Shown: in pieces, positions 3,597 to 29,080 of the stretch
How the letters are laid out: every line of letters starts with the position of its first letter
Numbering within the stretch: position 1 is the stretch's first letter
DNA from: Blastocatellia bacterium
GTDB taxonomy: Bacteria; Acidobacteriota; Blastocatellia; Chloracidobacteriales; JADJPF01
Direction: 5' to 3'
DNA: 64,000 nt
NCBI GenBank assembly: GCA_039812885.1
Contig: JBDIBI010000003.1
Coordinates: 143,237-207,236, forward strand
Position numbers and translations under genes: made by a program
Notes under the pieces: generated by a model
What the model was told of the DNA's origin: nothing
The model's input: the letters and a program-made list of their open reading frames with translations, nothing else
The model's database searches: none

Positions 3597-6482
3597 ATGC
3601 AAAATTTTAGCAGCAAAAATAAACAATTCTCCCGCTCAACAGATGATTTATTACAACCTTCTGCTGAAGATATTGAGCGTGAATTACAAGAAAAGCTAGC
3701 CTCTTTGGGTATTAACTTAAGTGGTGGCAGTTCTTCTTTTAGTACACGTGCTACAGGGGCATTACCAGGTGGTTCAGTTGATAAACGTACAACTACACTT
3801 GATATAGGAGAATTGCGTAATGCACTTAAACAGCAAATTAGCATTGCAGAAATAAAGACAGAAATAGAAAAAACTATTCGTCAAATAATTAAAGCTGGGC
3901 CTATTTCACATGGCGAGACACAAGAATTAGAACTAAAAGCTGCTATGTTAATGATTCCTTATTGTAGAGAGTATATACCAGATTTTCCTGAAGAAGTTAG
4001 ACCCGCAGAATTTGCTGTAGATCTTAATTTACAAGATATTATTGATTTTCACTCAGACACTAGTGAGCTTTCAGAAGAAGAATTAATAGAAACAATTGAG
4101 CAATATGCTGTTCAAATTATTCAAACTTTACTTAGTCATCCTCTAATTCCACAAAAAGATGCAAAAAAGATAGGTGTTGATCTAAAAACTACATCCTTAA
4201 AAGACGAACGAGGTACAGCAATGTACTCTAGTAGTGATGCTCAGTTTCTAGAAGTACTTTTTGGGGAAGCCAAACTTCTAGAAAGAGGTGGAGAGGTTGG
4301 TCTTTTAGCTATTTTAATCTCTGCAAAAAAATGGAACAAAATAGATAGTGAAACTCTCTTTAATAATGCGGTTTTATATACTTTAGAAGCTATGGCTAAA
4401 AGAAAAGGAGTTCCTTCTATTATTTTACGTAGCCAAGGCGGAGATCACCCAATAGCCTATATTTTAGGCGAGTATATTGTTCATTGTATTGATCAATCTC
4501 TAGAATCATTAATTAAATTTGTAGAAGATTTTATTACTATTGTTTACGATGCTCTTAATGCTCCTAAAGAAGAATTTCTTAATAATATTTATCATCAGTA
4601 TTTACCTAAGCTTAAAACTATTTTTCATAATTCTATACATGAATCTTTTGATCGTTTTATCGAAACTTTCCGCCGCGAATACCAAAATTCTCAACAAACT
4701 ATTCGTAGTAAAGTATTCTTTCTTAAACGTGTAGGGGATCTTTGTGAGCTTTCTTTTTACACTTATGAAGCTATTAACGCTTTGCAATCAGCTTCAGGTG
4801 AAGTATATGCAAAAGAAAATTTAGATGAAGGCACTAAGCACTATGCAGTACGTAATAATATTCCTTTGGATGAAAGCTTAGATATACTTTCACAAAAAAA
4901 CACTCTAGCAGATTTACTTTTATTTATCTTAAAACAAAGGTGTTCACTTCAAAAAGATGGCATAAAAGCACATTTTGTTTCTAAGTTGATGAATGATACG
5001 CTATTTTTTTTAGATAGTTTGCGTAGGGTATTTGATCATAGCTATGCACGTGGCCGAGCAGTTTCTAGTAGTGATTATAGCAATTGGGAAGAAGTTGTAG
5101 CAGATTGTTCACGTGGGTATGGACGCTTAGTTTTTGGACGTAATTTAAATGATACAGAAAGATATCATTTTGAGAATATATATAGAAAGCTTTTGGAAAA
5201 ACATTTATCTTTCTTTGATTTACAATCTCCTATGGTTTTTTCAGGTTCAGACTTTAAGCTAGAAAAACTAGCTAAGACAAAAAGCCCAGAAGATGCACTC
5301 AAAGAAAAGTTTTTACAGTTTTTAATAGCACTTCATCAAGCTTTGCTTAATTTTAATCCTGACAAACCGGATGAAATAATTAAAGTAAAAGATAATTTAG
5401 ATGTTTTAGCAAAAACACTACCTAATTCAAATGTTTCTGCTCAACAAAATAACACAGCTGCTTTTACTCTAGAAGCTGTACAGACTCGTGTATTGCTTTC
5501 ACAAAGCGAATTACCATTTTCTGATTACACAATAGAAGCTCTTTTAGCGGCAGTTACTCCTGATGCAAAGGATAAAACCCTTTTAACACAAGCTTTGCGT
5601 GCCTCTATTGAACTATCTGAAAAAGCTACAATTGGTGAAGAATTTTTAGCTGCAATAAATTTTCTTCAGAATTTGCGACAGCGCATTAGCTTGATTATTA
5701 GTTTCAATGAACAAGAAAAAGAACAATGGAACACTACAATTGCTGCTTCATTAAAGGATTTGCAACAAGGTGATCCTATTGCACTTTCTTCTTATGGAAT
5801 AATTCTCAGTGAAATAGATGAATGGGAATTATCAGCAGAACGTATTTTAAGCGAATGGAAAAACCCAGAAACTACAATTTTGCGAATACAACAAATTCTT
5901 TTTATTCTGCTACTTAAACGTAACAATGCAGAAATGCAAAATTTAATAGATCAATATCAACGTTGGATTAGTTTAAATACTTTGCCTAGTAGCTCTGTAC
6001 GTCGTAAAGTCTTTGAGAAACGTCTTCAAATATTGCTAAAATTTTCTCGTCAAAGTCCAATAAGAATTAACTTTTTAAAATTTTTGTTGTCTATGATGAG
6101 ATATGCACAATTATCTTATCAAGTAACAAATTGGGAGCAACCAGAAGCTTATTTACTAGAAGACTTATTAGCTGTAGAAACACCTACAAGACGAATTCAG
6201 CAAATTGATACAATACTTTCTACTAAAGAACCGGAAAAAGTCCAAAATCTGGTTCAAAAATTTGCTAGCGTATTGCAAGAACGTTTCCAACAAAGTGCTT
6301 CAGGTTATAGTTATTATACCGACGAGGAAAAATCACTAATGCAAGATAGATTAAGCAAATTTGAAGCTATTAGTAAACGTACTTCTTGGCAAGCTACTAA
6401 AGAACGTTGGCTTTTTTCTCTGGGTCATTTTTTGGTTAAACCAATGAAGAAATTGTCTAATCAACAAATAGTCGATAATTAG
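3597..6482 (+). CDS. Large uncharacterised protein (961 aa)
   Basis: Long uninterrupted ORF, co-directional with and 117 bp downstream of the previous giant ORF. I could recognise no enzymatic or nucleotide-binding motif. The composition looks mostly helical. Confidence 0.55.
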   Translation: MQNFSSKNKQFSRSTDDLLQPSAEDIERELQEKLASLGINLSGGSSSFSTRATGALPGGSVDKRTTTLDIGELRNALKQQISIAEIKTEIEKTIRQIIKAGPISHGETQELELKAAMLMIPYCREYIPDFPEEVRPAEFAVDLNLQDIIDFHSDTSELSEEELIETIEQYAVQIIQTLLSHPLIPQKDAKKIGVDLKTTSLKDERGTAMYSSSDAQFLEVLFGEAKLLERGGEVGLLAILISAKKWNKIDSETLFNNAVLYTLEAMAKRKGVPSIILRSQGGDHPIAYILGEYIVHCIDQSLESLIKFVEDFITIVYDALNAPKEEFLNNIYHQYLPKLKTIFHNSIHESFDRFIETFRREYQNSQQTIRSKVFFLKRVGDLCELSFYTYEAINALQSASGEVYAKENLDEGTKHYAVRNNIPLDESLDILSQKNTLADLLLFILKQRCSLQKDGIKAHFVSKLMNDTLFFLDSLRRVFDHSYARGRAVSSSDYSNWEEVVADCSRGYGRLVFGRNLNDTERYHFENIYRKLLEKHLSFFDLQSPMVFSGSDFKLEKLAKTKSPEDALKEKFLQFLIALHQALLNFNPDKPDEIIKVKDNLDVLAKTLPNSNVSAQQNNTAAFTLEAVQTRVLLSQSELPFSDYTIEALLAAVTPDAKDKTLLTQALRASIELSEKATIGEEFLAAINFLQNLRQRISLIISFNEQEKEQWNTTIAASLKDLQQGDPIALSSYGIILSEIDEWELSAERILSEWKNPETTILRIQQILFILLLKRNNAEMQNLIDQYQRWISLNTLPSSSVRRKVFEKRLQILLKFSRQSPIRINFLKFLLSMMRYAQLSYQVTNWEQPEAYLLEDLLAVETPTRRIQQIDTILSTKEPEKVQNLVQKFASVLQERFQQSASGYSYYTDEEKSLMQDRLSKFEAISKRTSWQATKERWLFSLGHFLVKPMKKLSNQQIVDN

Positions 6483-6502
6483 TTAATTAATTAATATGTT
6501 TT

Positions 6503-6841
6503 ATGGAGGGTAAAGTGCCTATATCCGCTCAAGAACGTTTAGCATCACTAAAAGAACTGCTAAAAGAAAATCCTAATGATGCCTTTGTTCATTATGGAAT
6601 AGCTGATACTTATTATAAACTTGGGGAATTAGAAAAGTCTATTGAGCATATTGAAGCTTACTTAAAGCTTGCTGATGACGAAGGTGCTGTCTATCGTATT
6701 TGGGGACATTCGCTTCTTAGGTTAGGCCGTACACAAGAAGCTAAAGAAGTTTTTGAAAAGGGAATTAAAGCAGCCGAACGCCATAATCATCCAAGTATGG
6801 TTGATGAATTTAGAGATACTATAGAAGATGAATGTGAATAA
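6503..6841 (+). CDS. Small TPR-like repeat protein
   Basis: 112 aa with TPR-like helical hairpins (AFVHYGIADTYYKLGELEKSIEHIEAYLKL; VYRIWGHSLLRLGRTQEAKEVFEKGIK). It starts 20 bp after the 961-aa ORF. Confidence 0.6.
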   Translation: MEGKVPISAQERLASLKELLKENPNDAFVHYGIADTYYKLGELEKSIEHIEAYLKLADDEGAVYRIWGHSLLRLGRTQEAKEVFEKGIKAAERHNHPSMVDEFRDTIEDECE

Positions 6842-7019
6842 GCTATAGTATTGTAACTGATGTAATAACTAGACTAAAAAAGTACTTTAACGAATTTGAG
6901 TATTACTAGGAGTTGCCTAAGTTTTCAGCAGAAGTTATTATTTTTAGTATTTAACTTAAAGAGCTTCTGATTTAACCCAAACAAGAAAATAGGCAGTTGG
7001 AGTTTATTAAGTAACCATT

Positions 7020-10000
7020 ATGAGACTAACACCATCTATTGAAGCAGTTTTAGGGACAGTGATTGATGGAAAATATCGTCTCGATAGTTTGGTTGGTATA
7101 GGTGGAATGGGACGAGTTTTTCGTGCTACTCACCTACAACTTAATAAAACTTTTGCCCTTAAGCTAATGAGCTTTCCTGCTAATGATTCCCCTCAACTTG
7201 CTAGATTTAAACGTGAAGCAGAAGCACTAGGTAAAATACGCCATCCAAATGTAGTAGGTGTTACCGATTTCGGTATCACATCTAATCATACACCTTATAT
7301 AGTTATGGAATATGTTGAAGGTGTATCACTACGTACTATGATGGAACGTCAAGGGCGTTTAAATGAGCGTCAGGCTGTACTAATTGCTAGGCAAGTTTGT
7401 GCTGGTCTTTATGCTGCTCACTTACAAGGTATTGTACATCGTGATTTGAAACCAGAAAATATCATGATAGAAGATCTTGTAGATGGTGAATTATTAGTTA
7501 GAGTTTTGGACTTTAGTATTGCCAAATTGTTACAGGTTGATGATGAAGATGACAATATAAGTGAGCATGAAGAATTGTTAGGGACAGTGAAATATATGAC
7601 ACCAGAACAATTCTTAGGTAGTGTAGTGGATGCTCGCTCAGATATTTTTGGTATATGTTTAGTTGTTTATGAAATGCTTGCAGGAATTGTTCCACCTGCT
7701 ACTGTTTCACTTGCACAGCCTTTGCGAGAAGTAAGAACTGATATTTCTCCTCGTCTGAGCGATATTTTACAAAAAGGACTTTCCACACTACCAGAAAAAC
7801 GCCAACAATCCACTTTAGAGCTAAAACGTGAGTTTGAAAGTTTAGAATTTACCAGTAATGTTGATGCTAGCACTCAGTATTCACAAAGTCTTAGCAGACA
7901 TAGCTTAAATACTCCTGGAGAGTCACTAGTTTCTTTAGAGTTAGAGATTGGTAAAGATATTTCTTATTACCGCATTCTTGAGAAACTAGGCGAAGGTGGA
8001 ATGGGGGAAGTTTACCTAGCTGAAGATACTAGATTAGGTCGCAAAGTTGCTCTTAAGCTACTTCCAACAGAAATTATTAAAGATCCAGTTAGAATTAAAA
8101 GATTTGAACAGGAAGCCCGCACAGCTTCAGCTCTAAACCATCCAAATATAATTACTATTTATGAAATAGGTAATTTTGAAAGAATCTACTTTATTGCAAC
8201 AGAATATATTGAAGGCTTTACTTTAAGACAAAGAATATCTGAAGGGCTTTCTATGAAGGAAGCTTTGGAAATTGCAATACAAATAGCTAATGCCTTAGCT
8301 GTTGCTCATCCAGCAGGTGTGGTACATCGTGATATTAAGCCTGGCAATATAATGTTGCGTTCAGATGGATATGTTAAAATTTTAGATTTCGGACTAGCGA
8401 AATTTACGGATATTGATGAATCAAACCAAAAACCAAAAGAATTAGTTGGAACTAATACAGAAGCAGGGAAAATCATTGGGACTCCCAAATATATGTCTCC
8501 TGAACAAGCTCGTGGTCAAGCTGTAGATGCTCGTACAGATATTTTTAGTTTTGGGGTCGTTCTTTATCAAATGTTTACAAGTAAAGTGCCTTTTGATGGA
8601 GCTACTAATTCAGATATCATCGTTTCAGTCCTAGAGCATGAACCTGTTCCAATTAGCTATTACTTGCTCCAATGTCCTCCAGAACTAGAGAGAATTATTT
8701 CTAAAGCTTTACGCAAAGATAAAGATGAGCGTTATCAAACAGTTAAAGATATGCTCTTGGATCTAAAAAACTTAAAGCAGAAACTTGATTTTGAAAATGA
8801 ATTTAACCGTAGTTCTAATTCAGAGGCTTCTAGTTCAAGTGGAGAGAACCTTTATACAAACAAAATAGATATAACAAATAAAATAGAAACTTCAGATAAT
8901 ACAGAAAAGAGCTTAAAACCCCAGGAAATATCTACAAATACTAATACTCCTAGAAAAAAAACAGCAATACTAGCTATATGGATATTGGTCTTATTAGTAG
9001 TCAGTTTAACAACAGGCTATTTAGTTTTTTACAAAAAAGGTTTTAACAGCAAGAAAGCCCGTAGTTTAGCAATATTGCCATTTCGCAATATGAAAAAAGA
9101 TGCAGATACAGATTTTCTTAGCTTTTCTCTTGCTGATGCAGTAATTAATAAATTAGGTTATGTGGATTCTTTAACCTTACGCCCTTCTTCTGCTATTAAT
9201 AAATACCGAAACCAAGATGATATTGATTCTAAAAAAGTAGCCAGTGAACTCCATGTTAATACTCTGTTACTGGGAAGTTTTCAAAAAGAAGGTGACGACT
9301 TAAGAATTACAGCACAACTTGTAGATGTAGATAATGATCAAGTAATTTGGGTTGATACCCTAAATGTTAAGTACGATAAATTGCTAACTGTACAAAGTAA
9401 AGTCGCAAATCAAATAGTTAAAGGACTAGAAATAAAACTTAATCCAAATGAGGCTGAAGAACTAAAACGCAATTTAACAGCTGACCCTCTAGCTTATGAA
9501 TATTGTTTGCGGAGCGTAGATTTATTAGCACTTTCTGCCAATAATTTTCCTAGAGCTCAAGAAATGCTTGAAAAAGCTGTATCAATAGATCGCAATTATG
9601 CCTTAGCTTGGGCTTACTTGGGATTATGTTATTCTTCTGCTGCTACGGCTCAATATAAAGGCTCAGAGTACTATACTAAAGCCCAGGAAGCCTATGATAA
9701 AGCGATAGATTTAGATAAAGATCAAATTGAAGCTCGTCTCTTTAGCGCTACATTACTAACAGATACTGGTCATGTGGAAGAGGCTGTTAATAGGCTAAAG
9801 AAAATAATAGAGAAAAAACCTCGTTTAGCTTCAGCTTATTGGGAACTAAGTTATGCTTATCGTTATGCTGGTATGTTAAATGAATCCATTATTGTTGGTG
9901 AACGAGCTATAGACTTAGACCCAAGTGTAATGAATAGAACATTTAATAGCTATTTTTATAATCAAGAATATCAAAAATTTATAGATAGTCTGCCAGCTTT

Positions 10001-22512: not shown

Positions 22513-24150
22513 ATGAAACAATGTCCTAAGTGTAATGCCCAATATAGTGATGACCAAGCGGTTTGTCCTATAGATGCAACTGTTTTAGTAGACACAAAAG
22601 GCAATCAAGTTAATGTTGATCCAATGCTTGGTCGTGTAATTGCTGATAAGTATCGTATAGAAAAACTAATTGGACGTGGTGGAATGGGTGCAGTGTATGA
22701 AGGGCAACATATGCTGCTAGATAGACGTGTTGCTATCAAGGTATTACAACAAAATATGGCTAATGATGAACAAGCTGCTACTAGATTTATTCGTGAAGCA
22801 AAAGCTTGTGCTAGGATAGAACACCCTAATGCTGTAACTATATATGATTTTGGCGTACTTCAAGAAGGAAGTGCTTATTTGGTGATGGAGTTTATTAAAG
22901 GTTATTCTCTACGCCAGCTTATGATGCAACAAAAACCTTTAACCCCAGAGCAAATTGCTGAGTGGATGATACAAGTTTGTAATGTAGTTGAGGCTGCACA
23001 CCAACAAGGTATTATTCATAGAGATCTTAAACCAGAAAATGTAATGCTAAAAGAAACTCCAGATGGATCTGTAATTGTTAAAGTTGTAGATTTTGGACTA
23101 GCAAAAATTACCTCTGAATCTGGATCTGAAAAGGCTAGCACAAATTTGACTAAGCCAGGAGAAATGTTAGGCACTCCGCATTATATGGCGCCGGAATATT
23201 ATGAAGGCGAAACAATAGATAACCGTGCTGATATTTATGCTATAGGTATTATGATGTATGAGTTGTTTTGTGGAGATACCCCTTTTACTGGCACAGTTCA
23301 AAGTATAATTGGAGGACATCTTTTTAAAGATCCACAACCAATTATTAACTTCAACCCTTCTATCCATCCAGCTCTAGATCAAGTTGTTCAGAAAGCATTA
23401 AAGAAAAAACGTGAAGAAAGAATAGCTTCAGCTTCAGAACTAACCCAAGAACTTAAAAAAGCATTAAAAGTTGCTAGGGAGTTTTTCTTCCAAAAAACAG
23501 ATGTACAAACACCATTAGAGGCAGAGGAATTTAAAGCAGGTTCTCTTGATTCTGAGCAACAAACCTCTGAACTAAAGAAAGATACTTTATTCCAAGCTGA
23601 CTCTCCACAAATCTTAAAAACTGAAAAAGTAATTCCTGCTTCACATAAAGAAACTACAAAAATTCAAGAGATCCCTTCTCAAAATAAGCTTACTCAACAA
23701 ATGAATCTAGAAGCTTTAGAATCTCTTGGTATAGGGCTAGAAGCCAAAACACCAGAAGCTAATAAAGCTGTACCTGCAACCCAAAAAGTAGTTATAGATG
23801 ATGTTATATCTGATAAACCAACAGAGTCCTCTTTTACTTCTGCTTCTACTTTGCCTCAACCTCCTGTAGTTGCCGGAGTTGGTATCGCAATTAGCACTCC
23901 CAATAAAGTAATTAATCCAGTTCCTAATACTCAACCAATTACTCCACCTAGTGTTGCTCCTAACCAACTTCAAGTCCAAATACAATCAACAACTAATGCT
24001 CCTCAAACAGGTGAACTTAAACAAGAATATGAAACTTTGTCAGATGTTCTTTCTGCCTTAAAAGGTCAATTAATAATAGGCTCAATTATTGTGGTTCTTT
24101 TAGCAATTATGGTAAGTTTACTTGTTATATATCGTCTAGAAGTTCACTAA
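22513..24150 (+). CDS. Ser/Thr protein kinase with N-terminal zinc ribbon and C-terminal TM anchor
   Basis: CPKCNAQYSDDQAVCPID zinc ribbon. Kinase motifs GRGGMGAVY, VAIKVL, HRDLKPEN, DFGLAK, GTPHYMAPE. Low-complexity Pro/Thr linker, then TM helix LIIGSIIVVLLAIMVSLLVIY. Confidence 0.85.
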   Translation: MKQCPKCNAQYSDDQAVCPIDATVLVDTKGNQVNVDPMLGRVIADKYRIEKLIGRGGMGAVYEGQHMLLDRRVAIKVLQQNMANDEQAATRFIREAKACARIEHPNAVTIYDFGVLQEGSAYLVMEFIKGYSLRQLMMQQKPLTPEQIAEWMIQVCNVVEAAHQQGIIHRDLKPENVMLKETPDGSVIVKVVDFGLAKITSESGSEKASTNLTKPGEMLGTPHYMAPEYYEGETIDNRADIYAIGIMMYELFCGDTPFTGTVQSIIGGHLFKDPQPIINFNPSIHPALDQVVQKALKKKREERIASASELTQELKKALKVAREFFFQKTDVQTPLEAEEFKAGSLDSEQQTSELKKDTLFQADSPQILKTEKVIPASHKETTKIQEIPSQNKLTQQMNLEALESLGIGLEAKTPEANKAVPATQKVVIDDVISDKPTESSFTSASTLPQPPVVAGVGIAISTPNKVINPVPNTQPITPPSVAPNQLQVQIQSTTNAPQTGELKQEYETLSDVLSALKGQLIIGSIIVVLLAIMVSLLVIYRLEVH

Positions 24151-24279
24151 CTCCTTACTGAATATTGCTTTAACTATAATACTTTTCAATATTTTACTAG
24201 CTAGCTTTCTTCAGGAGAAATACTTTCCTACAAACAACTCTTATTTCAACTCTAACTTAAATTTTTTCTAAATTTTTTC

Positions 24280-24308
24280 TTGATTTTTCTAAATTCGTTT
24301 TATATAAT
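24280..24308 (+). promoter_or_regulatory. Sigma70-like promoter of the E1/E2/JAB cluster
   Basis: TTGATT (24280-24285), 17-nt spacer, TATAAT (24303-24308). It lies 57 bp upstream of the ATG at 24365. Confidence 0.6.
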
Positions 24309-24340
24309 TTAGATAGTGTAAAACATACACTATCTAAATT
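24306..24340. promoter_or_regulatory. Perfect 15-bp inverted repeat (candidate operator) overlapping the -10 box and predicted TSS
   Basis: aatttagatagtgta-aaaca-tacactatctaaatt. The arms at 24306-24320 and 24326-24340 are exact reverse complements. Confidence 0.55.
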
Positions 24341-24364
24341 TATAAGATAGAGATATAAAAAAGT

Positions 24365-25006
24365 ATGTTAAAGAGAAAGCAAAACACCAAAGTTTTTTTA
24401 GCTAGAACTGTTGAAAATCAAGCAGATATAGCCACAGAAACAGCACAAATAATACAAAAGGTAAAAGCTCAAAACCATTATGGTTTATGTCCAATTTGTA
24501 TAGAGGATCTTATTTTTGTAAACAGGCTTCATGTTTGTACAAAATGCCACAAGCAATATGTTAGGCGTAGTCGAGATGGTGAGTTGATAGATTGTGTTTT
24601 GCTTCCTTATGGATACTGTCGTTGCTGCGATCAAGCGTTTCCTTTGATAAAGATTATAAATACAGAAGATTTGCTTTGTCCAATTAGTAAAGAAAGATAC
24701 TTTTTCTACTTAAATAAACACTTGAGGGTTAGTGAATTACCTTTTGGAATATGCTCTTGTTGCCAAATAGCTAGCCCATTGATGAACAAAGCAGATGGTT
24801 CAATTTACTGTAATATAAGTAAAGAAAATTATATACGTAATAATAATGGTACTATTACGCGTAAACCTGTAGAAGTCAATTTACCATCAAGTACAGAAAT
24901 AGAGGCAGCTCTTAATGAAGGCACAGCAGCCTTTTATTATGGTGGTTTTATAGGAACTCAAGAACCTGAGCCACCTAATGAAATACCAAAGCGCCGTCGT
25001 CGATAG
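24365..25006 (+). CDS. Cys-rich protein with three degenerate zinc-ribbon modules and a YYGG-plus-tail C-terminus
   Basis: 213 aa. Modules: YGLCPIC..(x12)..CTKC, YGYCRCC...PL..(x)..CPISKERY, FGICSCC...PL..(x)..CNISKENY. C-terminus is ...EGTAAFYYGG (GG codons at 24941-24946) followed by the 19-aa tail FIGTQEPEPPNEIPKRRRR. It is the first gene of the cluster. Confidence 0.6.
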   Translation: MLKRKQNTKVFLARTVENQADIATETAQIIQKVKAQNHYGLCPICIEDLIFVNRLHVCTKCHKQYVRRSRDGELIDCVLLPYGYCRCCDQAFPLIKIINTEDLLCPISKERYFFYLNKHLRVSELPFGICSCCQIASPLMNKADGSIYCNISKENYIRNNNGTITRKPVEVNLPSSTEIEAALNEGTAAFYYGGFIGTQEPEPPNEIPKRRRR

Positions 25007-25044: not shown

Positions 25045-25278
25045 ATGAACAACCGTCAAAATACACCAACAATTGCACCTACTTGTAGTTGCTGTTTACC
25101 AACCCAAAAACTTGTTGTAACTGACCAAAGAACTTATTGTCCATTAACTCAAAGACTTTATGATAACAATGGCAATCAACTTCCAGCAGTAATTGACTTT
25201 TATCCAGCACAACGTCCAAAGGGTGAAAAAGCTCCTTTTGCCATTAATCCAGCAGAAGAACGCTTTGGTTTAAAGTAA
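25045..25278 (+). CDS. Small single-module Cys-rich paralogue of the 213-aa protein, at the position where Bil-type operons carry the Ubl
   Basis: 77 aa with a good RBS (aggag). It has one module, TCSCCLPTQKLVVTDQRTYCPLTQRLY, matching the repeat of the upstream protein. C-terminus is ...NPAEERFGLK (Gly75 followed by 2 residues). It lies directly upstream of the E2-like gene. Confidence 0.55.
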   Translation: MNNRQNTPTIAPTCSCCLPTQKLVVTDQRTYCPLTQRLYDNNGNQLPAVIDFYPAQRPKGEKAPFAINPAEERFGLK

Positions 25279-25312: not shown

Positions 25313-26008
25313 ATGCAACAGAAACGTATTTTGCCTAACAATAAGTTAAAAACTTGGGAAGTGGATGTGGAAGTTCTAAAGTCCAAATTTAAAAGCCATG
25401 CTTGGCTAAAAAATGAAAAGTTTTTAAAACGCGATATAGAGGAAATGAGCCAATATTTGCCTCATTGGATTATTACAGTAGGAAATGGAATAAATTTGCT
25501 ACATTCTAAATGTTGTTCTGATAACTTGGCACCTATAGAAGGTGAGCTACGTTGTATTTTATGTAATCGTCCAAGTTCAGAAACTCCAAATACATTAACT
25601 TGGACAGGACTTCTACCAGTGGGTTTAGAAGGTTATGAAAAAGCTTTTAAAAAGTTAGAAAAAGCTAGAGCAGAAGGAAAGCTAAAATATCCAATTATTA
25701 TACCTAACAATAAGCGTCATTTACTTGTTCCAATGATGGTTGTATATCCTAGCAACTGGCCTTATTCGCCTCCTCAGGTTCATTATGTAGATAACCAATA
25801 CATAGATGCTCTAAAACTCCCTTCTAATCATCAAACTCATCTAGGTGGTAGAACAATTTGTCTTTATCATGCAGCACAATGGAATGATAACACCTCAATT
25901 ATGCAAGTAATCGCAAATCGTGTTGCACCTCATTTGTTAGCGCTCTTGAAGCTATCAAATGATCAAGAAAACTTTGAATTTTTTAATACTTCTTATGGTT
26001 ATTATTGA
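25313..26008 (+). CDS. UBC-fold E2-like ubiquitin-conjugating enzyme homologue with an inserted Cys4 knuckle
   Basis: 231 aa. MMVVYPSNWPYSPPQVHYVD...HQTHLGGRTICLYHAAQWNDNTSIMQVI parallels the eukaryotic E2 core (YPxxPPxxxF...HPNI...GxICLDIL...W). The candidate catalytic residue is Cys183 (codon 25859-25861). The insert HSKCCSDNLAPIEGELRCILC carries four Cys. Confidence 0.7.
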   Translation: MQQKRILPNNKLKTWEVDVEVLKSKFKSHAWLKNEKFLKRDIEEMSQYLPHWIITVGNGINLLHSKCCSDNLAPIEGELRCILCNRPSSETPNTLTWTGLLPVGLEGYEKAFKKLEKARAEGKLKYPIIIPNNKRHLLVPMMVVYPSNWPYSPPQVHYVDNQYIDALKLPSNHQTHLGGRTICLYHAAQWNDNTSIMQVIANRVAPHLLALLKLSNDQENFEFFNTSYGYY

Positions 26009-26031: not shown

Positions 26032-26091
26032 CCAAGATACGTTTCTTGATTCCAAGATACGCTTCTTGATTCCAAGATACGCTTCTTGAAC
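26032..26091 (+). repeat. Three tandem 20-bp units
   Basis: ccaagatacg(t/c)ttcttga(tt/ac) x3. Each unit can form a small caaga/tcttg hairpin. The units lead straight into the larger repeat array. Confidence 0.8.
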
Positions 26092-26360
26092 CCCAGGTTA
26101 CGCTTCGCTAAAACCTGGGGCTAATATGGGTTTGGCGATTTGAATTTTGAGCTATTTTAATAAATGCACTCATTTTTTTGAACCCCAGGTTGCGCTCCTT
26201 TCACTCGCTAAAACCTGGGGCTAATATGGGTTTGGCAATTTGAATTTTGAGCTATTTTAATAAATGCACTCATTTTTTTGAACCCCAGGTTGCGCTCGTT
26301 TCACTCGCTAAAACCTGGGGCTAATATGGGTTTGGCGATTTGAATTTTGAGCTATTTTAA
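26088..26360 (+). repeat. Three direct tandem copies (92, 100 and about 81 bp) of the left-type hairpin unit
   Basis: Each unit reads gaa-CCCCAGGTT-loop-AACCTGGGG-ctaatatgggtttggc(g/a)atttgaattttgagctattttaataaatgcactcattttttt. Copies 2 and 3 differ at only 2 positions over their shared length. A degenerate fourth copy lies at about 26385-26460. Confidence 0.85.
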
Positions 26361-26509
26361 AATATTAGTTTGGAGTTGTGCTTTTTTGAATCCTAGGTTA
26401 TGGGGTTAATGTAGGTTGAGCAATTATGAAATTAGGTAGTTTCAATAATTAAACCTACTTAAAAAATATATAAACCCGAGATTTAGTCAGACTCAAAATT
26501 AGGGAAAAT

Positions 26510-26554
26510 ATATTAGCCTGGGGTTTTAACGAGTGAAACGAGTGCAACCCCAGG
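26510..26554 (+). repeat. Right-type terminal hairpin closing the repeat array
   Basis: atattag-CCTGGGGTT-ttaacgagtgaaacgagtgc-AACCCCAGG. The loop is the reverse complement of the left-type loops. It ends 2 nt before the ATG at 26557 and 14 nt before the ATG at 26569. Confidence 0.8.
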
Positions 26555-26568
26555 TTATGAGGGGGTAT

Positions 26569-27492
26569 ATGAAAAGACCAATAGTAAAAATTAGTTGGCA
26601 AGCATGGAAAGAAATCTCACAAGAAGTAAACAAATGGGCTAAACAGGGCAAAGAGCCTTTGGAATGCGTATTTTACCCACTTACGGAAGTTATATTTGCT
26701 AAAAATAAAGCTCTTACGCCTTTTGATACAATTGACTTAAAGGACGTAGAAGAATTTATTATAAGATCTGTCTTTATTCCTCCTGATAAATACACCAATT
26801 ACTCTAGTTATGCTGCAAGTTTTATTGCTCCAAGTGAAGATTCAACAAAAATGCAGACAGTTTTTGCTGAAGGTATTGATGCAAAACTCAGATCTTTTCC
26901 ACAACTTTACTTCCTAGGGCCAGGACATTCACATCCTTTTTCTGTTGATTCCACTTCTCCATCTTTAACGGATATTAATTATCATATGCGCCCTTACCGC
27001 TTGAAAAATGAGAACCTTCTTGGCTTTCGATTCTCATTAGCATTAATTGTAGTACAAACATCTGATAATGTGTTAGAAGAATTAAAATTTGAGTTTTCTT
27101 TTGAACAACTTGAGTATTTAAAATGGCAAGCTTGTTCATTTGTTTTGGATGAAAATCAGAAGCTACAAGATCTTGGAATAGCAAAAGTAATTTCTAACAA
27201 AAAGTTGTTAACAAAACCTTTTTATTATTCTACAAAAGGAAATGCTTGGGAAAACCAACAGAAATTATCTCTTGGAAATAGATTAATTGAACATCAACGT
27301 TGGCCTGGAGCTTGGACATCTTTTTTGATTAAGCAAAGCCTAGAATTAGCTATGTTAGTAATGTTACCTCCACGATTTCCCATTCAACCAGCTATTAAAC
27401 AGAGTCTCTCACTTACAACTAAACAAGCTAGCAGTGCAGAGTTTTGGAATTGTGGACGCTCTTACAAAGATTATTCTTTAGGAGAAATCTAA
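26569..27492 (+). CDS. JAB/JAMM (MPN+) family metallopeptidase, putative deconjugating or processing isopeptidase
   Basis: Upstream Glu (PLECVFYPL) plus GPGHSHPFSVDSTSPSLTD, which reads H-x-H-x9-S-x2-D (JAMM-like; canonical spacing is x7). The ORF track starts at GTG 26533, inside the repeat hairpin loop. I prefer ATG 26569 (gagg at 26559-26562 as RBS) or ATG 26557. Confidence 0.7.
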   Translation: MKRPIVKISWQAWKEISQEVNKWAKQGKEPLECVFYPLTEVIFAKNKALTPFDTIDLKDVEEFIIRSVFIPPDKYTNYSSYAASFIAPSEDSTKMQTVFAEGIDAKLRSFPQLYFLGPGHSHPFSVDSTSPSLTDINYHMRPYRLKNENLLGFRFSLALIVVQTSDNVLEELKFEFSFEQLEYLKWQACSFVLDENQKLQDLGIAKVISNKKLLTKPFYYSTKGNAWENQQKLSLGNRLIEHQRWPGAWTSFLIKQSLELAMLVMLPPRFPIQPAIKQSLSLTTKQASSAEFWNCGRSYKDYSLGEI

Positions 27493-27493
27493 T

Positions 27494-29080
27494 ATGTTGA
27501 CTACTAGGGCAGATAATAATACAACTCAAGATATAGAGCTTTTTGCTCGAATTAAGCCAATTGTTGGGGATACACTTTTTAATCGTAAAGTAGTTATTTT
27601 AGGCAATGAACAAATGGTTTTGCTAATAGAATATTTAGTTTGTTGTGGAGTTGTAAATTTTGAACTTCTAGAGCTAGATGAACAAGTTAACGAAAATGCC
27701 AAGCCTTTAGTAAAAGCGTTAGAAGAGGTTTCTAAGAGATTACAATTAAAAATCAATTTTCAAACTTGGAGCAAAGAAAATCTTGAAAAATTAAGCACTC
27801 AAAACATAGACTTAATTGTTGGAAGTGGCGACTACAACGCTTTTCAACAAACAAAAACACTTGTCTATAAAAGTGGAAAAGCAGGCATTTTTTATTTGTT
27901 AACTCCTAGTAGCAGTGGGTTAATTATATTTTTACAGCCAAATAATCTAGTGGAATTACCTGTAAATCTTTTTTCTAATAATTCTATATATCAATTTACT
28001 TATTTACACTTAACTAATGTAGTAGCAAATTATGCTAAAGGCCTATTATTAAAAGGAACAAAGTTTGCTAGATTGGATATAGAATCGATTGTAAACAATC
28101 ATCAAATGTTGTTGGTAGGTCATCCTACTTGGCCTTGGGCAATTAAAGCAATTACAGCTTTTGAATTTCCTTATTTGCTTACTAATGTAATTACTCAAAA
28201 TGAGTCAACCCCAAAGTTAACAGGTAAAAAATATCTGGTGGTTGGCTTAGGTAGTTTAGGAAGTGTTATATCAGATAGTCTATTTGATTTAGGGGCAGAT
28301 CTAGTATTAGTTGATGGGGAAAAAGTTGAAAAAGCTAATCCAATTCGTCAGCTTTATAGTGTTGACCAAGTAGGGTTGCCTAAAGCAATTGCTTTATCTA
28401 AACGGCTTAGCAACAAAAGTTTCTACAAAGAGCAAAAAGTTGTAAGTTGTGAGTTAGTAATTACTCCAGATAATATTGAGGAATTTGAGAAATTAATAGA
28501 AATTCACAAGCCTGATGTAGCTGTAGTAGCTACAGGAACAGGCAATGATAGAATTATTTCTCAAAGCTTACTTTCAAAACAAATTCCACATGTTGTAGTG
28601 AGTTGTTATGCTAGAGCTAGGTTTTTTGAAGCAATTGTTGTAGATGCTAAAGGTAGTCCATGTTTTGGTTGTATGAGGGGACATCTTTACTTAGGTAAGA
28701 TGCCAAGTTTAACTCCTGAGCAAAAGGCTAGATATGTAAGTTCTGAGAGTGATCTAATGGCTGAACCTGCTACTAGAATTGAAACAAGTCGTGCTGCTGA
28801 TTTAGCTACACATATAGCTTATGGATTAAGTAATTTAGAATATGCACCTTGGCTAGATCGAGCATTAAAAGAAGAAAAAACATTTTTTCTTGGTGGAAAC
28901 GTAGCAGAGTATCAAGATGGAGAATGGGCATATACGATCAATCAGCCAAGTGAAGTAAAATTATTTGGATTAAGTGATATTACTGGACGAGGAAATTACA
29001 TAGAATGTTGGGATTGTGGGAGAAAACTTCATGTAGAAGTTCAGCAAAAAAATCTAGGAGTCATAGAAAAGATAGAATAA
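27494..29080 (+). CDS. E1-like ThiF/MoeB-family adenylating enzyme with an N-terminal degenerate (inactive-type) Rossmann domain
   Basis: C-terminal half: KYLVVGLGSLGSVISDSLFDLGADLVLVDGEKVEKANPIRQLY (GxGxxG, acidic residue, Arg finger), GLPKA, ATGTGNDR, and two CxxC pairs (CFGC at 390-393, CWDC at 505-508) as in MoeB/ThiF. N-terminal half: RKVVILGNEQMVLLIEYLVCCGVVNFELL resembles the same fold but lacks the glycine motif. The start overlaps the JAB stop (taatatg). Confidence 0.75.
   Translation: MLTTRADNNTTQDIELFARIKPIVGDTLFNRKVVILGNEQMVLLIEYLVCCGVVNFELLELDEQVNENAKPLVKALEEVSKRLQLKINFQTWSKENLEKLSTQNIDLIVGSGDYNAFQQTKTLVYKSGKAGIFYLLTPSSSGLIIFLQPNNLVELPVNLFSNNSIYQFTYLHLTNVVANYAKGLLLKGTKFARLDIESIVNNHQMLLVGHPTWPWAIKAITAFEFPYLLTNVITQNESTPKLTGKKYLVVGLGSLGSVISDSLFDLGADLVLVDGEKVEKANPIRQLYSVDQVGLPKAIALSKRLSNKSFYKEQKVVSCELVITPDNIEEFEKLIEIHKPDVAVVATGTGNDRIISQSLLSKQIPHVVVSCYARARFFEAIVVDAKGSPCFGCMRGHLYLGKMPSLTPEQKARYVSSESDLMAEPATRIETSRAADLATHIAYGLSNLEYAPWLDRALKEEKTFFLGGNVAEYQDGEWAYTINQPSEVKLFGLSDITGRGNYIECWDCGRKLHVEVQQKNLGVIEKIE

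Follow-up and report, generated by a model that had tools for sequence, protein, structure and literature searches.

The 64,000-nt stretch of the Blastocatellia bacterium contig JBDIBI010000003.1 analysed here (hereafter the window) contains an open reading frame (ORF) that probably encodes a catalytically competent, very diverged ubiquitin-conjugating enzyme (E2) of the UBC fold, bearing a predicted zinc ribbon and acting together with an E1-like activating enzyme and a JAB-like peptidase, with a small zinc-ribbon protein encoded immediately upstream as the presumed modifier (Table 1). Fold assignment, residue conservation and gene order are direct results of the analysis, in which single homology scores are weak; all functions proposed below are inferred from them.

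Conservation and distribution of the E2-like protein

The protein of the window contains five cysteines in total, at positions 67, 68, 81, 84 and 183. The stretch KCCSDNLAPIEGELRCILC begins at residue 66, HQTH occupies residues 173–176 and GGRTICLY starts at residue 178; the cysteines and these strings are found where the initial annotation, made by a model from the sequence alone, had placed them. A search of 5.8 billion proteins recovered only 14 relatives (49–100% identity), all of them unannotated 'hypothetical proteins' originating from Acidobacteriota-type metagenome-assembled genomes (MAGs) and from metagenomes. Six residues (C67, C68, C81, C84, H176 and C183) show no change in any of the 14 orthologues, the most distant of which is 49% identical. 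When 1.84 billion cluster representatives were searched exhaustively with a profile, 51 proteins of the family were identified (E ≤ 1e-3), and the wider family was sampled in a 30-member alignment (19–59% identity to the window protein). C68 is retained in 27 of these 30 sequences, C81, C84 and C183 in 29 each and H176 in 24. The conservation of Cys183 and of the four insert cysteines, on which the initial annotation of an E2-like protein with a Cys4 insert depended, is therefore complete among the close orthologues and largely maintained in the wider family.

The ORF is genuine and conserved beyond chance. Searches with the E2 in Pfam, NCBIfam and the PDB sequences produced no match, and no match to Pfam UQ_con was obtained at E ≤ 1 for the window protein and 29 relatives. 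A genome scan with the E2 alignment (A1) detected four loci only, and no relatives were found in a scan of viral contigs.

The predicted UBC fold and its candidate active site

The AlphaFold2 model of the E2-like protein, based on a 14-sequence alignment, has a mean predicted local distance difference test score (pLDDT) of 89.5 and a predicted template modelling score (pTM) of 0.87. All elements of the UBC topology, i.e., helix α1, a four-stranded antiparallel sheet and the crossover helix, are present in order. An N-terminal extension composed of two strands and a short helix (residues 1–33) is followed by α1 (35–48), β1 (53–58), the hairpin of the ribbon (71–75/78–81), β2 (94–104), an extra helix (109–120), β3 (136–144), β4 (155–158), two short helices, the active-site loop with H176 and C183 and, finally, the crossover helix (196–215). 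Helices α3 and α4 are missing from the model, and the pLDDT falls to 64–74 in the H176–C183 loop. Among the top 50 Foldseek matches of this model in the PDB, 49 correspond to UBC, UEV or UFC1 folds (Tsg101/Vps23 UEV, UBC9, UFC1 and UBE2G2), with E-values of at least 0.12 and target-normalised TM-scores of up to 0.56.

Profile comparisons point in the same direction. The E2 family profile aligns in hhalign with UBE2D2, UBC9 and UBE2N (E = 2.7e-4, probability 41%). Residues 132–220 are paired with residues 46–119 of UBE2D2, in agreement with the earlier suggestion that the C-terminal 95 residues correspond to the UBC core. The alignment places C183 on C85 of UBE2D2, ICLY..W on ICLDIL..W, and LLVP..YP..WP..PP.V.Y (YPxxWPxxPPxV) on the YPxxPPKV motif of β3–β4. 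The PADLOC E2 model PDLC00860 matches nine of the 30 family members (best E 2.6e-6). When the 30 E2 relatives were used as a profile against the PDB, only zinc ribbons and a UBC9 fragment (E 0.5) were retrieved. Homology to E2s is well supported by the convergence of these weak sequence and model signals with the genomic context, and the E2-like assignment of the initial annotation, together with its expectation of a UBC-like fold, is borne out by the model, Foldseek, PADLOC and hhalign, each weakly on its own.

The alignments and the model suggest that C183, located in the loop between β4 and the crossover helix, is the candidate catalytic cysteine. A conserved histidine is present 7–8 residues upstream of this cysteine in the family (7 in the window protein), compared with 10 in UBE2D2. 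In the family alignment, neither a Pro-Asn nor any other conserved asparagine follows H176, and the HPN motif is lacking. The proposal that HQTH represents a variant of HPN could not be upheld: since H173 is variable (present in 9 of the 14 orthologues) and Q174 and T175 are unconserved, only H176 counts and HQTH is not a motif. Moreover, hhalign leaves the HQTH stretch unaligned and so does not establish that it corresponds to the HPN position.

A predicted zinc ribbon on the face used for docking in canonical E2s

The model locates the Cys4 segment inside the core, between β1 and β2, rather than between helix 1 and the core as previously described. In the wider family, the insert reads CPxC-x(10-17)-CxxC, which suggests that the ancestral insert was a canonical CPxC...CxxC ribbon. 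Position 65 is a cysteine in 25 of the 30 wider-family proteins; the clade of the window presents S65 plus C67 (xxCC..CxxC), still with four cysteines. Judging from this alignment, the 'CC' of the window clade is a putative first ligand shifted from position 65 to position 67. The first knuckle is lost in three of the 30 family members. The profile of the insert matches the zinc ribbons of eS27, eL37 and RPA12, weakly (best E = 0.017, with eS27), and weak matches to Pfam Zn_ribbon were obtained for 7 of the 30 proteins. From sequence and model, the segment looks like a metal-binding element, as had been proposed, and we predict it to be a zinc ribbon.

In canonical E2s, the face formed by α1 and β1–β2 is the docking surface for the ubiquitin-fold domains (UFDs) of E1 enzymes and for E3s. 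Since the ribbon is located on this face, a role in docking is the most economical reading; by analogy, the ribbon is most likely a partner-docking element, with the E1, the ribbon-bearing modifier and the multi-ribbon protein encoded at the start of the cluster as possible partners.

The initial annotation had also pointed out that the insert echoes the CC...C spacing of the neighbouring Cys-rich proteins and had seen in this a shared interaction or recognition module. The echo is real as a pattern, the ribbons of the neighbours being CxCC...C(P)xT variants of the CxxC...CxxC ribbon, with the canonical form in P0084-86 and L011. As a sign of a shared module it does not stand. The comparison of the E2 ribbon with the profiles of the small and multi-ribbon protein ribbons in hhalign gave E = 0.005 (a single comparison) and a probability of 7%, i.e., generic similarity, and the knuckle variants of the E2 and of its cognate small protein do not co-vary: in L011, an xxCC E2 goes with a canonical small-protein ribbon, and in L013 an E2 devoid of knuckle 1 goes with a CxCC small protein. 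We therefore rejected a specific kinship between the ribbons of the E2 and of the modifier, hhalign giving generic similarity alone; on sequence grounds, their CC likeness appears to reflect independent shifts of a zinc ligand in two ribbon families. The insert of the E2 may interact with partner proteins.

A small protein with a conserved glycine tail as candidate modifier

The small protein encoded directly upstream of the E2 is composed of an N-terminal ribbon (CxCC...CPLT; in P0084-86 and L011 it takes the canonical form CxxC...CPLC), a low-complexity linker of varying length and a strongly conserved tail. Across an alignment of 25 members, no variation is seen at C14, C17 and C32, and conservation of G75 reaches at least 90%. 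The family consensus of the tail is DFYPGR..RGE.AP.AINPAE[ED]RFG; in the window it reads DFYP..KGE.APFAINPAEERFG75, then LK. The glycine is followed by 0–9 unconserved residues (LK, QI, A, AR, R, SNQS, SIYAEENIA and others), two sequences ending exactly at this position. The remote operons encode a similar small protein which terminates in ..EKIG, ..ESGF or ..ETYA.

In three contigs, including L011 and L012 (positions 6001–6924 in both), the small protein and the E2 are joined in frame into a single protein of 307 aa. These fusions come from one Blastocatellia lineage (MAG GCA_033583975.1; SRR15826901). Their junction reads ...INPAEDRFG-RPESFT-QRRIMPDR..., and their small-protein ribbon is of the canonical CxxC...CxxC type. 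The modifier-like pattern of the tail, conserved up to the glycine and disposable beyond it, together with a fusion that would need a cut after this glycine, led us to infer that the small protein, instead of a ubiquitin-like protein (Ubl), serves as the E1 substrate. There are precedents for both aspects: the residue beyond Gly97 of BilA is removed by the deubiquitinase of its operon before use by the E1 (PMC10557695), and Cap2 conjugates a protein other than a Ubl, namely the CD-NTase, through its C-terminus (PMC11601603).

The AlphaFold2 model of the small protein (25 sequences) shows only short hairpins at residues 11–40 (pLDDT 74–78) and an unstructured tail of low confidence (residues 54–66). 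The absence of any helix in this model indicates that the protein is not of the β-grasp type. A fold search with the model gave only non-significant matches, with ribosomal zinc-ribbon proteins at the top and no ubiquitin-like structure among them. From tail conservation and modelling, the small protein is a probable non-β-grasp modifier activated at Gly75.

A conserved operon encoding E1-like and JAB-like proteins

The genes encoding the multi-ribbon protein, the small protein, the E2, the JAB-like protein and the E1 form a tight same-strand cluster, with gaps of 38, 34, 560 and 1 nt. This order recurs in about ten loci: it is kept in L001, L002, L003, L005, L009, L011/L012 (with the fusion), the remote L013/L014, and L015, the E2s of L013/L014 and L015 being 25–33% identical to that of the window. 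In L008, whose contig is truncated at the beginning of the gene that follows the E2, the genes before this point are in the same order, and a small Cys protein is encoded directly 5′ of the E2 in L017.

Table 1. Features of the operon and of its E2-like protein (positions are those of the window)
Feature	Position	Strand	Basis
Multi-zinc-ribbon protein, 213 aa: one CxxC..CxxC and two CxCC..C modules; C-terminus ALNEGTAAFYYGGFIG...KRRRR	24365..25006	+	sequence
Small 77-aa protein, candidate modifier: Zn ribbon C14-x-C16-C17 ... C32-P-L-T, variable linker, Gly tail	25045..25278	+	25-member alignment, AlphaFold2
E2-like (UBC-fold) protein, 231 aa	25313..26008	+	ORF with ATG start; AlphaFold2 model, Foldseek, hhalign, PADLOC
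Predicted zinc-ribbon insert of the E2, residues 65–84 (S-K-C67-C68 ... C81-I-L-C84), β1–β2 hairpin	25505..25564	+	alignment, model, profile matches
Active-site stretch of the E2, H176-L-G-G-R-T-I-C183, candidate catalytic Cys183 and upstream His176	25838..25861	+	conservation, hhalign, model
Tandem repeat block between the E2 and JAB genes (20 nt x3, 100 nt x3, one inverted copy)	26032..26556	.	repeat analysis
JAB/JAMM-like metallopeptidase (putative), 307 aa from M at 26569 (mechanical ORF: GTG 26533)	26569..27492	+	alignment, weak model matches
E1-like adenylating enzyme, 528 aa: N-terminal ~230 aa and ThiF domain 236–398	27494..29080	+	Pfam ThiF E=2.2e-16

In the E1-like protein, the nucleotide loop is intact, GLGSLGS and NPIRQ, both in the ThiF domain, are invariant, and a Zn site is predicted from C390/C393 (PCFGC) and C505/C508 (CWDC). 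There is no cysteine between these two pairs, and C371 (SCYARARFFE, upstream of the crossover loop) is the sole further invariant cysteine. The PDB sequence matches of the protein are ThiF-type proteins and Cap2, and its best NCBIfam matches are ThiF and MoeB models, all under the cut-off. A comparison of its N- and C-terminal halves in hhalign (E 0.13 over 13 columns) gave no sign of the adenylation domain being repeated, in degenerate form, as the N-terminal domain, which is the case in BilD. In the JAB-like protein, E32, H120-S-H122 and S132 are invariant; model matches are weak (PADLOC JAB, best E 0.006; Pfam Prok-JAB, E 0.16 in one member; Rpn11-like, E 1.4 at the HxH), and it is mainly the motif and the context that make this protein a putative JAB/JAMM peptidase. 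None of the genes of the operon matched the Ubl families of Pfam.

The multi-ribbon protein does not match any Pfam or NCBIfam family. A clear paralogy links its CxCC..C modules to the ribbon of the small protein, and the number of ribbon modules varies from 0 to 3 among orthologues (zero in L008, one in L003). The orthologues retain N-terminal ..KIxEMLKRKR motifs, the first KIEEMLKRKR repeat being absent from the window protein, and, at the C-terminus, ALNxGxAAFYYGGF[IV], after which come an acidic stretch and, usually, a run of 4–7 arginines. The YYGG was considered as a possible conjugated terminus and rejected, since conservation continues beyond the GG and YYGG is missing from the L013 orthologue. 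From these features, the protein is more likely a candidate scaffold, adaptor or target.

In most close relatives, genes encoding a lidless HSP70 of ~499 aa and an isochorismatase-like protein of 284 aa are located upstream of the multi-ribbon gene. Both are missing from the operon of the window (24150–24365), and tblastn found neither of them elsewhere in the window. In L013, whose E2 (33% identity) has lost the first zinc knuckle, this pair is replaced by a gene directly after the E1 (4869–7124) for a 751-aa AAA+ ATPase of the ClpB/Clp_N type. The operon of the window is a reduced version that carries a repeat insertion.

Genomic surroundings

The window flanks contain housekeeping genes, e.g., those for the pyruvate dehydrogenase E1 component, phosphoglucose isomerase (PGI) and AceK, and the locus is syntenic in four genomes (L001, L005, L009 and the window). 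L005 and L006 are labelled 'uncultured Clostridia bacterium', yet they are syntenic with the window and with Acidobacteria-labelled MAGs; they share 85% identity with the window in PGI and 68–72% in the E2, and their Clostridia labels look doubtful.

The repeat insertion lies between the E2 and JAB genes, where the gap is 560 nt long compared with 4–32 nt in close orthologous loci. It comprises 20-nt units (26032–26096), 100-nt units (26105–26404), the first two of which are 98% identical, and an inverted copy (26510–26556) that overlaps the GTG at which the JAB ORF mechanically starts. A hairpin, AACCCCAGGTT...AACCTGGGG, is contained in each unit, and the core motif occurs nowhere else in the window. 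No RNA family was detected by Rfam anywhere in the window, including the repeat block. In other genomes the system occurs without this block.

Just 5′ of the multi-ribbon gene, a perfect 12-nt inverted repeat, TTTAGATAGTGT-N7-ACACTATCTAAA (24308–24338), abuts a promoter-like TTGATT-17-TATAAT (24280–24308). The number of promoters counted around this region (24280–24338) is not above that in shuffled sequences. From its sequence and position, the inverted repeat is a possible operator of the operon. The Ser/Thr kinase encoded directly upstream (22513–24150) combines an N-terminal zinc-ribbon-like CPxC..C with a long stretch of low complexity and a transmembrane helix at the C-terminus. It scores very strongly against PADLOC PD-T4-6, in what look like generic matches to kinase domains. 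We considered this kinase as a member of the system and rejected it, as it adjoins the operon in the four syntenic genomes alone, L003 and L011 having no such gene next to theirs.

Proposed mechanism and alternative explanations

In the mechanism that we propose, the JAB-like peptidase would trim the 0–9 residues beyond Gly75 of the small protein and, in the fused lineage, would cut the small protein from the E2. The E1 would then adenylate Gly75, and the modifier would pass as a thioester to Cys183 of the E2, possibly via Cys371 of the E1. Cys183 would finally hand the modifier to a target amine, a reaction that the JAB-like peptidase may also reverse, while the zinc ribbon of the E2 would dock a partner, either the E1, the modifier or the multi-ribbon protein. 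In view of the association with HSP70 or a ClpB-like protein and of the housekeeping syntenic setting, phage defence is no more plausible as a role than proteostasis or regulation. Taken as a whole, the system could tentatively be viewed as an undescribed class of conjugation, in which an E1–E2–JAB machinery has been re-targeted to a zinc-ribbon protein with a disordered Gly tail (a 'Pup-like' tag), with ribbon-based recognition by the E2 and its multi-ribbon partner and a link to HSP70/ClpB-like proteostasis instead of phage defence.

The identity of the modifier is the first point at which another explanation has to be considered. The conjugation system may be real and its modifier a hidden β-grasp protein, located at the C-terminus of the JAB-like protein, at the N-terminus of the E1 or in an unlinked gene, and the ribbon proteins would then serve as adaptors, substrates or E3-like factors. 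No fold is assigned to about 120 residues of the JAB-like protein and about 230 of the E1, the multi-ribbon protein contains three tandem Zn modules, and the model of the small protein has matches, although non-significant (E 3.8–5.4), to the HOIP RBR and the RNF31 IBR, both E3-type zinc domains. We nevertheless consider this unlikely, given that the tail of the small protein is modifier-like, being invariant to the glycine and variable afterwards, whereas in the multi-ribbon protein conservation extends past the GG (F-[IV]); that the fusion between the small protein and the E2 is sensible only if a cut after the glycine frees something; and that Pfam Ubl families are unmatched by the genes of the operon. 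It seems very unlikely that conjugation is not involved at all and that the E1 modifies the C-terminus of the small protein in a manner similar to MccB/PaaA or to sulfur carriers, with the E2 as a non-catalytic scaffold. This alternative would account for the lack of an obvious catalytic-Cys domain in the E1, for the ThiF/MoeB models as its best, sub-cut-off, NCBIfam matches and for a small protein in which a conserved C-terminal peptide follows a long 'leader-like' N-terminal part. Inactive scaffolds such as UEV and RWD domains, however, have lost the catalytic cysteine, and the same would be expected of a scaffold here; yet Cys183 and the upstream histidine persist across sequences that have diverged by more than 70%, the cysteine in 29 of the 30 proteins. 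Furthermore, the E2–JAB–E1 trio is a signature of conjugation systems (PMC1779556), and sulfur-transfer, export or immunity genes were not seen in the operons examined.

The remaining alternative concerns the biological role and overlaps mechanistically with our preferred explanation, the conjugation of the small protein by a diverged E2. Conjugation of the small or multi-ribbon protein could switch on an effector at infection, in a CBASS-like regulatory module or another form of phage defence. The nearest sequence profiles are the PADLOC E1–E2 and JAB models, and all the characterised bacterial E1–E2–JAB systems (type II CBASS and Bil) are anti-phage (PMC11601603). Such a role is distinctly unlikely here, since neither a CD-NTase, a nuclease, a TIR domain, a pore-former nor any other recognisable effector is encoded in the about ten loci, and the housekeeping flanks, the synteny in four genomes, the absence of relatives in viral contigs and the chaperone associates (HSP70, ClpB-like) all argue against it.

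Comparison with known conjugation systems

The discovery of type II CBASS, Bil and Bub has changed views on the origin of ubiquitination. To our knowledge, all the characterised bacterial ubiquitin-type pathways among these three, except CBASS, use β-grasp modifiers. The architecture of the operon described here corresponds to none of the Iyer classes 6a–6e (PMC1779556), nor to characterised type II CBASS, Bil or Bub systems. It is apparently a rare and undescribed operon type: we found no description of it in the literature searched; the E2 clade may have been named earlier by Burroughs et al. in 2008 (J Struct Biol) or 2011 (Mol Biosyst).

The Bil operons (BilABCD, Iyer class 6d/6c) resemble this one in having separate genes for the E2, a JAB-type peptidase and the E1 beside that of the modifier, in the residues beyond the C-terminal glycine of the modifier, which must go, and in an E1 that combines an extra N-terminal domain with an active ThiF domain and is devoid of a UFD (PMC10557695). 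The four-Cys zinc site of BilD is likewise split between the crossover loop and the C-terminus (PMC10557695). In contrast, BilA is a β-grasp Ubl, whereas the modifier here would be a zinc ribbon with a disordered tail. BilB presents a conserved histidine after the cysteine (CEHH, C..E.H....H) and a long loop before it (PMC10557695), whereas the E2 of the window has its histidine 7 residues before the cysteine and a predicted zinc ribbon in β1–β2. BilD carries a mobile catalytic-Cys domain between its zinc CxxC motifs, where the E1 of the window has no cysteine, and no Bil chain is present among the PDB sequence and profile matches of the E2.

In type II CBASS (Cap2/Cap3), as proposed here, a JAB-type peptidase accompanies the conjugation of the C-terminus of a non-Ubl protein, recognised as a tail, and Cap2 figures among the closest matches of the E1 in the PDB and PADLOC and, with weak scores, among those of the E2 (PADLOC E1–E2 models, with E-values of at least 4e-4). 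Cap2 is, however, an E2–E1 fusion acting on a CD-NTase, whereas in our loci the E2 is separate and bears a predicted ribbon, the JAB gene stands between those of the E2 and the E1, and neither a CD-NTase nor an effector is present in any locus. Bub (6E/DUF6527) is another diverged bacterial operon for an E1, an E2, a modifier and a peptidase, with non-canonical chemistry (PMC11601596), but it uses a serine in the E2 and a tyrosine in the E1 (oxyester), β-grasp Ubls and a DUF6527 serine protease (PMC11601596), unlike the cysteine of the E2 and the JAMM-like peptidase found here. The prokaryotic Ubl–E2 fusion/RING systems (Burroughs, Iyer and Aravind 2011, as cited in PMC7159879) also combine a modifier–E2 fusion, presumably released by a JAB protein, with zinc-chelating operon partners; their modifier is a β-grasp Ubl and their E3 a RING protein. 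By analogy from general knowledge, the predicted modifier is also reminiscent of Pup in being small, largely disordered and recognised through its C-terminal tail, with a chaperone/AAA+ linkage (L013). Pup is ligated via a Glu side chain by the glutamine-synthetase-like PafA, without E1 or E2. Here, by contrast, an E1/E2/JAB machinery is encoded and the terminus is a glycine.

If the small protein is indeed a non-ubiquitin-like modifier, E1 and E2 enzymes would recognise little more than a C-terminal tail. The operons would also tie E1/E2 tagging genetically to chaperones in free-living Acidobacteriota, in a housekeeping and not a defence-island setting. The small size of the proteins and the sharp predictions that can be made (Gly75, Cys183, the JAB cut site and zinc content) make the system directly testable. 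The operon family would add to the known E2s a clade outside Pfam, NCBIfam and the PDB sequences, with a ribbon on the canonical E1/E3 docking face. Compared with eukaryotic E2s (UBE2D2 and UBC9) and UEV proteins, the E2 of the window shares the core fold, the YPxxPP motif of β3–β4 and a Cys-Leu followed by a tryptophan about 7 residues later; it differs from them by the lack of the HPN and of α3/α4 and by the presence of a 33-residue extension, the predicted zinc ribbon and an extra helix in the sheet. In this operon, a familiar E1/E2/JAB chemistry is thus probably combined with a new clade of E2s carrying a zinc-ribbon insert and with a modifier that is not of the β-grasp type.

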